A DNA stretch of 59,411 nt, the filler included, from Squatina squatina (taxonomy: Eukaryota), in assembly GCA_031763465.1 (NCBI GenBank). It is 3 parts of 3 records of this genome, joined end to end, with 100 filler letters (N's around TTAATTAATTAA, not from the genome) between each part and the next. Parts side by side here need not be neighbours in the genome. Positions count along the whole stretch, not along the records: positions 29,389 to 44,959 come from JARFOE010000005.1; 2 more parts are not named here. One strand, given 5' to 3'. Both the position numbers and the translations under genes were made by a program. Position 1 is the first letter of the stretch. Each line of letters starts with the position of its first letter. Positions 29,951 through 43,794 of the stretch are shown here, in pieces. The notes beneath the pieces were generated by a model. It saw only the letters and a list, made by a program, of their open reading frames with translations, did no database searches and was not told where the DNA came from.

Positions 29951-30118
29951 GGCCTTGTTTAGCAGGAACTTTCTGCCCATCTGGGAGCTCAAGGCCAACT
30001 GGGTGTCCCGCTGGTAGCTATAGCAACAGAAGTCATCAGTCAGAGTGTGATCTTTGTAGGCCTGGATATTATTGTGCAGCATACTCCACCTCATTTCTCC
30101 TGACACCTTGCTGGCCAG
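29951..30118 (+). CDS. Cys-rich repeat (GCC2/GCC3, ephrin-receptor-like) giant protein, exon A
   Basis: ccttag|...ccag|gtaatt, 168 nt, phase 1-1: GPCLAGTFCPSGSSRPTGCPAGSYSNRSHQSECDLCRPGYYCAAYSTSFLLTPCWPG. Confidence 0.9.
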
Positions 30119-30367
30119 GTAATTTCAGAGTTAAATGACTTTTAATGAGCAGCTACGGAGCCAATTATTACTCACCCGTATGATGTTTAAAATAAAAGCC
30201 TATTGTAAAATCTGTCTTCAATAATTTCCATTGTACTGATAGTACATTCTATAACCTGATGACTTTGTTATGTCAGTTCATGGTGACAATGCCTGTTGCT
30301 TACATGAAGGCCTTCAGCACTCGTATTGATTTGATAACAGGTTTGTCTGTTGGCTGGTTGATTTTAG

Positions 30368-30580
30368 GTTATTACTGCCCCAGAGGTACTATGCATCCTG
30401 CCCAATACCCATGCCCTCTTGGGACCTACAACAACAGAACAATGGCTCACAGTGTCTTGAACTGCNNNNNNNNNNNNNNNNNNNNNNNNNNNNNNNNNNN
30501 NNNNNNNNNNNNNNNNNNNNNNNNNNNNNNNNNNNNNNNNNNNNNNNNNNNNNNNNNNNNNNNNNGACCATGTTGGGCAG
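30368..30580 (+). CDS. Cys-rich repeat protein, exon B (interrupted by a gap; may be parts of two exons)
   Basis: ttttag|GYYCPRGTMHPAQYPCPLGTYNNRTMAHSVLNC-[N gap 30466-30565]-PCWAG|gtaata. Confidence 0.85.
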
Positions 30581-31144
30581 GTAATATTAAACTGAAGGTC
30601 ACGTATCACCATGAGCCTCAGTGATTTCTATTTTTTGGGATTCCCATGACTGCCAATGAATTACTGGTAAGTTAGCTGAAAATAAATTGCAGATCATTCT
30701 ACTTACCATTTCTAATCTTTCTATCAGATTTCAGCCAATGTCTCATGAGTAATGTGGTACCACTGAGTTGTAGTTGGTTTAACGTATAAAACACCTCGGC
30801 ATTTTGTATTCCTGTGACCTGCCAGAAGCAGTTATTTTCTGTTTCTAAAGACTCCTGCCCATTGTGTATGTGACTGAAGCAGACTTCAAAAAAAGAAAAA
30901 GCTGATTCTCCCTCTGAAAGCCAAGTGTAAACCTAACCACAGGTGAAAAGAGAATGTTTCAACAGTCCATGGGCTCAACCCACAAGAAGCAGCAGCCTTT
31001 GAAAATGCCTCATTCCCTCTCTCTGCTCTACTTTTTAAAGTTAGCCCATGTCAGGGTTCAGTGGACAACCAGAATGCTGAGACAATAATTTATACAATTC
31101 CATTCTTCGTTATCACGTTCCAATCACTATTCCCTTCTCTTTAG

Positions 31145-31324
31145 GATTTTACTGTCTTGAGGGATCTAAAACTCCAACACCCGTTGCAGCCGCCTTTGGC
31201 GACATTTGTACTTCTGGTCACTTCTGCCCCAATGCGACAGCCCTCCCTGTCCCATGTCCATCTGGAACATTTCGATCAACAACAAGGGGAACAAGTGAAG
31301 AAGACTGCACCCTGTGTCCTTCAG
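31145..31324 (+). CDS. Cys-rich repeat protein, exon C
   Basis: ctctttag|...tcag|gttagt, 180 nt, phase 1-1: GFYCLEGSKTPTPVAAAFGDICTSGHFCPNATALPVPCPSGTFRSTTRGTSEEDCTLCPSG. This frame is absent from the ORF track. Confidence 0.9.
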
Positions 31325-31589
31325 GTTAGTGTGCAATGAGCAGAATTTATTATTACTGTCATTTTAGTTCTTTTGGTGACATTGGAGCTGGTGTTTTCAG
31401 GCGACAGATTGTTTATTTGTCCTTATTAAATTCATTTGAATTTATTTTGCACTGGGTCAAAGTGAATAATAGAAATGTTTCTGTAAGGGGCAGTGGTTTC
31501 TGTATGTCAATGTCCCAAAAAGCCCGATATCTGAGATCCTATGTCAGAGCATGATGTTGTGTGATGGCTCTACCTGACTGTTTCTGTAG

Positions 31590-31697
31590 GTTACTACTGT
31601 AAGGAACCAGGCAAGGACCATGCCGGAGACTTTTGTGACCCAGGATTTTACTGTAAGAAGGGCGCAAAGACTGCAACCCCTCTTGATGGCATTACAG
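31590..31697 (+). CDS. Cys-rich repeat protein, exon D
   Basis: ttctgtag|...acag|gtgctg, 108 nt, phase 1-1: GYYCKEPGKDHAGDFCDPGFYCKKGAKTATPLDGITG. Confidence 0.9.
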
Positions 31698-31884
31698 GTG
31701 CTGCATTTAATTGTCAACTATTTTTATTTACCTATGTTGTATAAACAATAGGAGTAAATGTCGGTGTCTCTTGAACCAGTCTCACTGAAAGCTATGAAAT
31801 AGTGAAATGTCTACCAATGTAATATACTAATATAATAGTTCTTGGTTATGGTGTATTAATTCTGTCACTAGAATAATTGTCAAA

Positions 31885-31996
31885 AGAAAGAAAGACTTGC
31901 ACTTATATAGCACATTTCACGACCACTGGATGTTTCAAAGTGCTGTTCAGCCAATGAAGTACTTTTGAAGTGTATTAACTGTTGTAATGTAGGAAA
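31885..31996 (-). mobile_element. SINE 3' tail fragment (DeuSINE-like)
   Basis: aagaaagacttgcacttatatagcac...tcaaagtgct...cagccaatgaagtacttttgaagtg closely resembles 48671-48780. Confidence 0.75.
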
Positions 31997-32529
31997 GCAT
32001 CAACATATCCATATTGTCTATATTTGGCAATGGAATGGCTGAAAATAACTACCAGTCCTGTTGGAAATGATCTTGACACCATTACGTTGGCAGCAGAGTC
32101 CATATTACATTACTGGGATGTACTGACCAGCTAAATAGCAAATTAAAACATGGTTGTATTAATATTTAACAGGAATCTTTATAAACCCCTCCATTTAAAA
32201 TCCATTTCAATTGCCCATTTTGCTTTTAACTTCATGATTGCAGCAATATTTTTCCAATCCGTTGGAGTAAAACNNNNNNNNNNNNNNNNNNNNNNNNNNN
32301 NNNNNNNNNNNNNNNNNNNNNNNNNNNNNNNNNNNNNNNNNNNNNNNNNNNNNNNNNNNNNNNNNNNNNNNNNTCTAGTTCAAAATAATTCACAAGATTG
32401 CAAAATCTGTTTGCGCTAAACATACTTTTTAATGATGGCTGGTGAAAGCCTCTGCTTAACAAATCATCTGGTAAGCTAAAGTTGTTTTTTATTTGAATGT
32501 GATATATACTGATGGTTGTCTTTTCTTAG

Positions 32530-41641: not shown

Positions 41642-41992
41642 GTATGATATTAAAATATCAATTTGTTAACAGATCTCATTATTACTTCTCTGTGGCCTGT
41701 GTTTCTGGTAAATGCTAAAAGCAAGTTTTTTTTTCCTTGTAGCCTTAGGTTCTACTTTGGGAATGTTAGCAATTGTATTGTGAGGCCATGTCACATTACA
41801 GTTTTTGGTTATTTTTTTTCTTCATGGAAAGCCCTTGGGAATTAACTTTATGCAAATGTTGTGCAGCCTCTCCGGGGTGGTCAGGTGTTTGANNNNNNNN
41901 NNNNNNNNNNNNNNNNNNNNNNNNNNNNNNNNNNNNNNNNNNNNNNNNNNNNNNNNNNNNNNNNNNNNNNNNNNNNNNNNNNNNNNNNNNNN

Positions 41993-42197
41993 CCGGCTGT
42001 GCATGCGCAGTCTCGTCGGAGCCCCGGCTGTGCATGCGCAGTCTCGTCGGAACCCCGGCTGTGCATGCGCAGTCTCGACGGAGGACCGACTGTGCATGCG
42101 CTGTCTCGATGGAGCCCCGACTGCGCATGCGCAGTCTCGACGGAGCACTGACTGTGTATGCGCAGTCTCGACAGAGCGCTGACTGTGCATGTGCAGA
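41993..42197. repeat. 31-bp GC-rich minisatellite
   Basis: About 6.5 units of ccggctgtgcatgcgcagtctcgtcggagcc emerging from a gap, followed by ...gatctggtcacccta (hAT-like terminus, inference). Confidence 0.9.
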
Positions 42198-42244
42198 CTG
42201 ATTGTCCCAGTTTGACAATCTTAAGATCTGGTCACCCTACTTCC

Positions 42245-42432
42245 AGGGTTTGTGGTTGAGGCAGGAACTATGCCAACATTCAAGATTAGATTGGATAGGT
42301 GGTTGACGGGATATGGAAACAAGGCAGATGAATCTAATTCGGACTATTTGGTCGTGTGGACGGTTAACGCTGTCACGATTGTTTGGGCCAAATGGCTTGT
42401 TTCCATATTATAGCTTCTATGTATTTCTATGT
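42245..42432 (+). mobile_element. Degenerate CR1-type LINE 3' end
   Basis: gtggttgaggcagg..acattcaag..ttggataggt..gggatatgg..ggcag..ttgggccaaatggcttgtttcc..ttctatgtatttctatg. Confidence 0.65.
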
Positions 42433-42603
42433 ACATTAACAGCCACGACTCCAAACTGTGCACCTAGTGGCATTGAATGTCTGTGATCCTTATACAACAA
42501 ACCGAGAACTCATTAAATGTTACTGAATTCTCGACCTCTATAACTGGTTCCAGAATATGTTGCTGTTATTTTATTTCCTTGATCTCTGCTTCATTCCCCT
42601 CAG

Positions 42604-42816
42604 GTTCTGAAAGCTACTTGTCGAATCCTTGCCCTGTTGGATACTACTGTTCTGAAATGACCAGACTACCAGTGCCCTGCCCTCCAGGGACTTATGGGAA
42701 CACTAGCCATGCTAAGCATCACGAGGAATGCTATCCCTGTCCTGAAAACATGTTTAACCATCTGTATGCACAGAGAGCTTGTTTTCCATGTGGAAGTACC
42801 TCATATGCAGGACTAG
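42604..42816 (+). CDS. Cys-rich repeat protein, exon H
   Basis: ccctcag|...ctag|gtgagc, 213 nt, phase 1-1: GSESYLSNPCPVGYYCSEMTRLPVPCPPGTYGNTSHAKHHEECYPCPENMFNHLYAQRACFPCGSTSYAGLG. Confidence 0.9.
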
Positions 42817-43216
42817 GTGAGCAATGAGTAGGGCAATTAAAATTAAAGACCATAGTTCNNNNNNNNNNNNNNNNNNNNNNNNNNNNNNNNNNNNNNNNNN
42901 NNNNNNNNNNNNNNNNNNNNNNNNNNNNNNNNNNNNNNNNNNNNNNNNNNNNNNNNNNGACAACATTTAGCATCTGTGGCTTCACATAAGCATAAGATGG
43001 AACATAAGCAGAGTTTTATGTACTGTCAGTCAGCGGATGCTTTTCACCATTTTTCATTCTGGCTGTTTTATTTGATCTAAATTCCACATCTGGGAAAATG
43101 CTGCAATCGTGCATTGATTCTAAAGTAGACAAAATCTGCGTTGTAATATTTAGATTTTGTGACTATCAGACATGTTTTCACCCAGTTTAACATGAATACT
43201 TAATCCACACGCAGTC

Positions 43217-43432
43217 TTGTGCATTCTCTCTCGTGCACGCACATGTGCTCTCACACACACACACTTGCTCACTCTCTCGCGCACACTCTTATGCACATGC
43301 TCACTTGCGCACACATGCCCTCACGTACACACTTGCTCACTTCGCGCACGCTCTTATACACACACACACGCTCTCACATGCACATACTTACTCTCTCTTT
43401 ATATACACACGCATTCCCTCACACATACACAC
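43217..43432. repeat. (CA)/(CT)-rich compound microsatellite
   Basis: Degenerate cacacac/ctctct runs; source of spurious His/Thr-rich ORFs. Confidence 0.9.
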
Positions 43433-43582
43433 AGATGGAACCATAATCCAGATTGCTGTTCAAAATCTGGCAGAAACCAGACAGAGAATTTACTGTCTCC
43501 AGAAACACCTCCCCTGCCAAGTATTATTTCTGGAGATTGTCAGATGGTACAATACATTGTACTGATTTCCTTTTTTACCTAG

Positions 43583-43794
43583 GTTTGCTCATGCTTTCAT
43601 GGAACCTGGGAAATACGTCTTTCATGATAATGCAGAACCTAGTCGAGCCCTAATAGTGAGTGTCAGTAAGTTTAGTACCGAGTGTGACACTGCATCTTTA
43701 CTTGTCCAGCCATCCTCTCCGATCCAGCTGGTAAGACATGGAATTCTAAAACAGCAAAAACTCAACCTGGCACCTGATTGGGCCCTCATTATAG
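43583..43794 (+). CDS. Cys-rich repeat protein, exon I (non-repeat region preceding a probable transmembrane segment)
   Basis: ttttacctag|...atag|gtaaat: (R)FAHAFMEPGKYVFHDNAEPSRALIVSVSKFSTECDTASLLVQPSSPIQLVRHGILKQQKLNLAPDWALIIG. Same strand and downstream of the repeats; assignment to the same gene is an inference from family architecture. Confidence 0.8.

Follow-up and report, generated by a model that had tools for sequence, protein, structure and literature searches.

The window analysed here is a 59,411-nucleotide stretch of Squatina squatina DNA (assembly GCA_031763465.1) made of three joined parts, of which the second (29389–44959; a letter-for-letter match to G000:C5:265133–280703, on the scaffold hereafter denoted C5) carries nine exons, A–I, of a gene for a giant membrane protein. 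These exons are real and constitute a fragment of a larger gene. On the evidence of exon identity and order, the gene is the cartilaginous-fish orthologue of zebrafish si:ch211-286b4.4, and the reading we favour, with some reservation, is that its product, likely the ciliary protein EVC3, is a non-catalytic surface rod tethered by its tail.

Exons of the window and their orthology

Exon A, 29951–30118, + strand: Cys-rich GCC2/GCC3-type repeats, phase 1-1, AG/GT ends, open; Pfam Ephrin_rec_like E 5e-4, under the cut-off.
Exon B, 30368–30465, + strand: repeat exon with AG acceptor, open up to a gap of unassigned bases (N) at 30466; joins A in frame; Ephrin_rec_like E 8e-3, below the cut-off.
Exon C, 31145–31324, + strand: repeat exon, phase 1-1, AG/GT ends, open; Ephrin_rec_like below the cut-off.
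Exon D, 31590–31697, + strand: repeat exon, phase 1-1, AG/GT ends, open; joins C in frame.
Exon E, 32530–32691, + strand: repeat exon, phase 1-1, AG/GT ends, open; 42–52% identity to family members by tblastn.
Exon F, 36128–36292, + strand: repeat exon, phase 1-1, AG/GT ends, open; Ephrin_rec_like E 5e-4, below the cut-off.
Exon G, 41493–41641, + strand: repeat exon, phase 2-1, AG/GT ends; corresponds to residues 300–352 of ray model P0001, 79% identity.
Exon H, 42604–42816, + strand: final repeats upstream of the juxtamembrane domain; corresponds to P0001 636–709, 81–86% identity; Ephrin_rec_like over the cut-off.
Exon I, 43583–43794, + strand: covers the end of the juxtamembrane domain (predicted to be cupredoxin-like) and the first part of the sole transmembrane helix; corresponds to P0001 992–1062; 79% identity to Pristis si:ch211-286b4.4.

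A sequence-only reading of the window had described nine open + strand exons with AG/GT ends, and this description holds: the AG acceptor is present in all nine, the GT donor in eight (that of B is lost in the N gap), and none contains a stop. Together they comprise 477 codons with 43 Cys, and five of the nine carry sequons. The phase is 1-1 in six of the seven complete repeat exons, G being 2-1. The assignment of the repeats to the GCC2/GCC3 type is likewise borne out by Ephrin_rec_like, which matches H above the cut-off and A, B, C and F below it, leaving the other four unmatched. The exons are not consecutive, since direct joins exist only between A and B and between C and D; in P0001, 283 residues separate G from H and 282 separate H from I, and both segments are absent from the scaffold. 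That the exons did not arise by chance follows from the matches of G, H and I to ray models, which are colinear and show 73–86% identity.

When exon I was used as a query, four of 18 candidates passed (three ray models and one unnamed fragment; 74–79% identity), the best of them named si:ch211-286b4.4, as the sequence-only reading had proposed; none of SVEP1, SCUBE or ELAPOR was the best match in these searches. Compared with the RefSeq models of si:ch211-286b4.4 (Pristis pectinata, P0001; Amblyraja radiata, P0002; Narcine bancroftii, P0003; Brienomyrus, P0069), the matched exons have 73–93% identity and the same order and domain layout, with no substantial difference, although the shark scaffold shows a long N-terminal repeat array where the ray models are 5′-truncated.

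An exhaustive search gave 86 matches, 77 of them with the juxtamembrane domain; the other nine (eight bacterial SpaA-repeat pilins, which share a short strand motif, and one without a family) were unrelated and were dropped. Names were looked up for 30 of the matches. Within vertebrates these run across rays, lungfish, bowfin, teleosts, amphibians (frog, caecilian), squamates (snake, worm lizard), galliform birds, bats, cat, horse and hamster, a range that does not bear out the earlier description ‘patchily distributed’; the named matches outside vertebrates are a crinoid and Entosiphon, plus two of the unrelated pilins. Turkey models are labelled ‘zonadhesin-like’ or ‘multiple EGF-like domains protein 6’, but they have the family juxtamembrane and tail domains, and these names were rejected. 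A protist member used as query retrieved 20 proteins of 2,863–7,807 residues, including those of Percolomonas, Bodo saltans, Saprolegnia, Blepharisma and a cercozoan. Judged by these matches, the family reaches beyond vertebrates to crinoids, euglenozoans, oomycetes and ciliates; Percolomonas, Bodo, Entosiphon, Saprolegnia and Blepharisma belong to flagellated or ciliated lineages.

A quick tree of the juxtamembrane domain, built from 50 of 128 rows bearing it after short rows and isoforms were dropped, places rays, lungfish, teleosts, amphibians, a squamate, birds and mammals in one clade (SH-like approximate likelihood ratio test, 99) whose branching largely follows that of the species; the crinoid is its sister. 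The hamster, cat, horse and bat models fall within this clade; Gm9195 is presumably the mouse orthologue.

The gene in the shark genome

The gene extends beyond the window stretch on both sides, spanning at least 82–83 kb of C5 (approximately 203,850 to at least 286,000), of which 52% is N. A scan of 200 kb of C5 found 30 open segments with the Cys motif; three appear chance-like, and the remaining 27 comprise 19 upstream of the window stretch and eight within it. Downstream, an exon of the tail is located at C5:285,805. Searching the shark genome with ray proteins recovered further exons on small contigs at 56–93% identity, including juxtamembrane and tail-domain exons, whose linkage to C5 we infer. 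The suggestion that many exons are hidden in gaps was therefore sound; exon counts are lower bounds, as the two long own-genome searches used a stricter first pass.

All 27 repeat-bearing scaffold segments and the high-identity small-contig exons are open, the latter and other open, high-identity exons covering 770 of the 1757 residues of P0001 (44%). To call the gene ‘intact’, as the sequence-only reading did, is fair for the assembled part and overstated for the whole; from its open frames the gene appears intact where assembled, and our claim goes no further.

Two exons elsewhere in the genome, at G000:C176:4116302-4116529 (L050; 40% identity) and G000:C856093 (L039; 49%), are second copies of parts of the main gene, and their exon border differs where the repeats meet the juxtamembrane domain. 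They possibly belong to a second, ancient, EVC3.2-like paralogue. The own-genome searches yielded no second juxtamembrane-core or tail exon, and the 200 kb of sequence surrounding the C176 exon, of which 59% is N, contained no additional family exon.

Minisatellites with 30- and 31-base units occupy 39876–40271 and 41993–42196 of the window, within introns, and each runs into an N gap; such repeats may explain the assembly breaks.

Domain architecture and predicted folds

The architecture is read from relatives, in which GCC2/GCC3 repeats are followed by the juxtamembrane domain, one transmembrane helix, a conserved post-membrane helix, and a tail in which a conserved 150-residue domain precedes a final coiled coil. 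Several complete protist members have signal-peptide-like N-termini. Long members contain approximately 60–157 repeat motifs (137 in a frog model of 4,605 residues), and in nearly all of them a juxtamembrane region of approximately 350 residues leads into a single strongly hydrophobic segment. The prediction of a giant membrane protein thus agrees with the size and single transmembrane segment of the relatives. The stretch LAPDWALIIG in exon I is indeed hydrophobic, but it opens the transmembrane helix and the protein continues beyond it; by stopping there the sequence-only reading fell short of the cytoplasmic tail, which bears the informative features. The tail measures approximately 580–680 residues in most vertebrates and 1,600–3,100 in the crinoid and the four protists measured.

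AlphaFold2 modelled the ray juxtamembrane region (46 aligned rows) with a predicted local distance difference test score (pLDDT) of 90 and a predicted template modelling score of 0.89. The C-terminal half of the model resembles cupredoxins, with pseudoazurin at Z 6.5 (root-mean-square deviation (rmsd) 2.6, 97 aligned) and plastocyanins at approximately 6, which are middling values; most of the top structural rows are cupredoxin folds, and the same family makes up the list returned by Foldseek, where E exceeds 0.03. These searches hardly probed the Cys-rich 115 residues at the N-terminus. At the position of the type-1 copper Cys, known from the cupredoxin fold in general and following the PGxYxF strand, 41 of 46 rows have Asp, and the adjoining loop has no conserved His or Met. 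The domain is accordingly predicted to be a cupredoxin-like fold without copper. In the ESM Atlas its nearest neighbours were exclusively unnamed eukaryotic clusters.

For the ray tail domain (28 rows; pLDDT 85) the closest structures are Wss1 (5xbn; Z 8.9, rmsd 3.2, 108 aligned) and proabylysin (4jiu; 8.0), followed by selecase (4qhf; 7.1), SPRTN (6mdx; 7.0) and YbeY (1oz9 and 7y7o; 6.2–7.2, at ranks 4, 7 and 10), and nearly all of the top 25 matches are zincin-type folds. Foldseek ranked selecase best (E 0.02); neither the tail nor the juxtamembrane model gave a Foldseek match at E 0.001, and the crinoid protein had no PDB match by sequence. The tail domain is thus predicted to be a minimal zincin fold. 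ESM Atlas neighbours of the domain are unnamed phage clusters (0.92–0.93), with DUF3684 (0.82) as a lead only.

The helix that bears HExxH in zincins reads HxxxH in this family, and the catalytic Glu is found in none of 30 rows from relatives (35 aligned, less five isoforms or near-duplicates); the second position varies among A, S, G, C, T, V and I. Both His residues are kept in 11/11 protists, 1/1 crinoid and 2/2 rays, and in 0/16 bony vertebrates. Five residues ahead of the last helix stands an Asp in 10/11 protists, the crinoid, both rays and two of 16 bony vertebrates, and Squatina squatina retains it (contig C444051). We infer from this distribution a His-His-Asp metal site without a general base, which would have been lost in bony vertebrates; cartilaginous fishes appear to keep this ancestral site. 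Whilst the predicted fold is common to Wss1, proabylysin, selecase, SPRTN and YbeY, the family domain differs from these minimal zincins in the missing Glu, in its third ligand, which is probably Asp, and in being a cytoplasmic module of a membrane protein.

Bat models P0056, P0097 and P0098–P0100 end approximately 415 residues past the membrane and have no zincin-like domain, which may reflect either a real loss in mammals or truncation of the models.

Relationship to EVC proteins

The family is quite likely ‘EVC3’, because a 47-residue repeat of the protist and crinoid tails appears to recur in shark EVC2. A converged profile finds 133 units of this repeat in 18 protist tails and one crinoid tail, against one in the same tails reversed. 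Applied to chondrichthyan EVC2, the tail-only profile scores 15–25 bits at one in-register site in six of the seven sequences rescored, with two weaker in-register sites. Local shuffles reached the EVC2 score in 0/300 cases for P0138, 0–1/300 for P0141 and 4–9/300 for P0143; reversed EVC2 stays under 5 bits, and 2,076 myosin/TPH coiled-coil windows of this genome peak at 9.5 bits, none reaching 15. EVC3 reportedly has a large Cys-rich ectodomain, which serves as a lead only. EVC2 is a separate gene in this genome, since its matches to the Pfam EVC2_like domain (PF12297) lie on other contigs; EVC2/limbin exons (L072–L075) were located on G000:C337075, C539401, C1084715 and C822998, the best match being 83% to a sawshark limbin model.

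According to the available text of a ciliome study, EVC3.1 and EVC3.2, names that go back to Pusapati et al. 2014, were detected in the ciliomes of sea urchin, anemone and choanoflagellate, and EVC3 is missing from some mammals including humans (Sigg et al., bioRxiv 10.1101/153437). Like EVC3.1/EVC3.2, the present family is likely EVC-related, ancient, pre-animal and kept in some vertebrates, with a possible second paralogue in this genome, although its vertebrate orthologues have lost the EVC-type repeats. With EVC2/limbin and EVC (PF12297; PMC3052239, as far as its available text describes them) it has in common a single-pass topology and a coiled-coil tail, and its protist and crinoid members appear to share the one 47-residue repeat; EVC2, however, has neither the Cys-repeat ectodomain nor the zincin domain.

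A number of observations weigh against this assignment and the function built upon it. The likely identity with EVC3 is drawn from the published description and the repeat seen in EVC2, not from a match to an EVC3 accession. The seed pattern of the repeat was picked after a spaced motif common to EVC2 and the crinoid tail had been noticed by eye, and the nine chondrichthyan EVC2 proteins of the comparison are orthologues and count as one event. More conventional comparisons are weak: pairwise BLAST of EVC2 with the crinoid member gives E 0.039, hhalign of the repeat profile with EVC2 gives P 0.033 and a probability of 1.5%, a plain hidden Markov model of the repeat scores 2–7 bits on EVC2, whole-sequence scores of EVC2 against the family are no better than reversed controls, and phmmer of EVC2 exons against the family tails found no match. 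PF12297 is absent from all family members scanned, and the repeat is absent from vertebrate orthologues (0/10 and 0/9 in two scans). An apparent likeness to EVC2 where the transmembrane helix begins and immediately beyond it was considered and is not supported, the juxtamembrane and post-membrane segments having no EVC2 match. The fold Z-scores are middling (8.9 for the tail, 6.5 for the juxtamembrane domain); own-genome searches with ray proteins recovered neither the first, nor the transmembrane, nor the HxxxH exon of the shark gene; the ciliary or flagellar placement is drawn from relatives (EVC3 ciliomes, zebrafish testis) and not from Squatina squatina; and the link between family range and cilia is drawn from the lineages in which members were named.

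Proposed function and alternatives

In the reading we favour, at least 100 disulfide-bonded, glycosylated repeats would form an extended stalk touching the medium or a neighbouring surface, with a rigid juxtamembrane pedestal beneath it. The conserved post-membrane helix, together with the coiled coils, may oligomerise and tether the protein in the ciliary or sperm-flagellar membrane; the tethering under the membrane is modelled, by analogy, on EVC/EVC2, which are described as tethered at the ciliary base in the available text of PMC3052239. The Glu-less zincin domain could bind a partner peptide, and probably also a metal ion in protists and cartilaginous fishes, with binding serving to pass on, or to anchor against, load on the stalk. 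As EVC-type repeats have been lost in vertebrates, a direct role in Hedgehog signalling is not expected. The zebrafish gene is reported to be up in testis of wild-type fish when compared with ovary (bioRxiv 10.1101/650218, from the part of the preprint available), which fits the sperm flagellum.

The same testis bias is equally compatible with the sperm surface. We regard as unlikely the alternative of a non-ciliary cell-surface protein that serves adhesion or gamete recognition (at the sperm head or in contact with the egg coat) or acts as a sensor triggering secretion, as with the apicomplexan CRMPs. GCC2/GCC3 repeats do occur in CRMPB, which is required for rhoptry secretion according to the accessible text of bioRxiv 10.1101/2022.02.24.481622, where CRMPs have nine transmembrane helices against one in this family; the EVC-type repeat, together with the conservation of the family in free-living flagellates, speaks instead for cilia. 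More generally, the GCC2/GCC3 (Ephrin_rec_like) module is common to CRMPs, ELAPOR1/2, SCUBE, SVEP1 and Eph receptors, but none of these has the family juxtamembrane domain or tail and none is matched by exon I. The tail itself might be an active metal-dependent hydrolase using His-His-Asp without Glu, in which case protists and cartilaginous fishes would possess a receptor-enzyme that turned into a pure scaffold in bony vertebrates. YbeY, whose structures rank among the matches of the tail model, is a zincin-fold nuclease without the zincin Glu, and the His pair and Asp are kept in protists, crinoid and rays, with the Asp also kept in this shark. Yet the site has no general base, the variable second position is in keeping with lost catalysis, and the persistence of the domain in bony vertebrates without the ligands indicates a metal-independent role; we consider an active enzyme improbable.

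A decaying pseudogene, with lesions in unassembled exons, seems very unlikely. The large N share of the scaffold span, the incomplete recovery of the ray model and the reported loss of EVC3 in some mammals (if the gene is EVC3, and as far as the ciliome preprint's available text goes) would allow it, but the missing share of the gene is in line with the gap share, the scaffold segments and small-contig exons are open, and Cys and splice phases are conserved. A bolder proposal goes further than the tethered surface rod that we prefer: the family would represent the ancestral ciliary receptor of eukaryotes, EVC and EVC2 being trimmed-down derivatives of it, and its tail zincin would be a functional His-His-Asp metal site, whether for binding or for catalysis, that among vertebrates survives only in cartilaginous fishes. 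Dismantling in vertebrates would then have been stepwise, taking the EVC repeats first, the metal ligands in bony vertebrates and the whole domain in some mammals. We put this forward as a tentative idea, and a rather doubtful one.

Other features of the window

The third part of the window contains further open frames.

47205–47537, + strand: an exon of a different gene, its open frame matching PIN_4 above the Pfam cut-off.
56983–57246, − strand: a Kelch-like gene exon whose open frame carries two Kelch motifs (E 8e-33).
45115–46011, − strand: open frame of 299 codons with no Pfam match at E 0.001.

Significance

The sequence-only reading saw here a candidate for an undescribed system. This is probably wrong, as the gene is annotated in public databases and the family is likely the EVC3 of three ciliary proteomes (bioRxiv 10.1101/153437, available text); the shark gene adds a member to an orthologue group that has been annotated but not studied, and for which EVC3 is probably the existing name. 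A literature search that left subscription papers, including the one defining EVC3, outside its reach turned up neither functional work on the vertebrate gene nor any reference to its zincin or cupredoxin-like domains. By title or abstract, none of the GCC2/GCC3 papers listed concerned this family, searches joining EVC2 with zincin or cupredoxin returned none, and Gm9195/Gm32742 appeared as a plain list entry in one paper.

The shark gene is an entry point to an ancient membrane protein of 4,000–7,000 residues whose function is so far unstudied in the literature searched. Its defined domains, predicted to be a copper-less cupredoxin-like fold and a Glu-less zincin, are open to tests in zebrafish, ciliates or Bodo. 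If the family is EVC3, an orphan fish and mammalian gene gains a name as a ciliary protein, likely the pre-Hedgehog form of the Ellis-van Creveld proteins.

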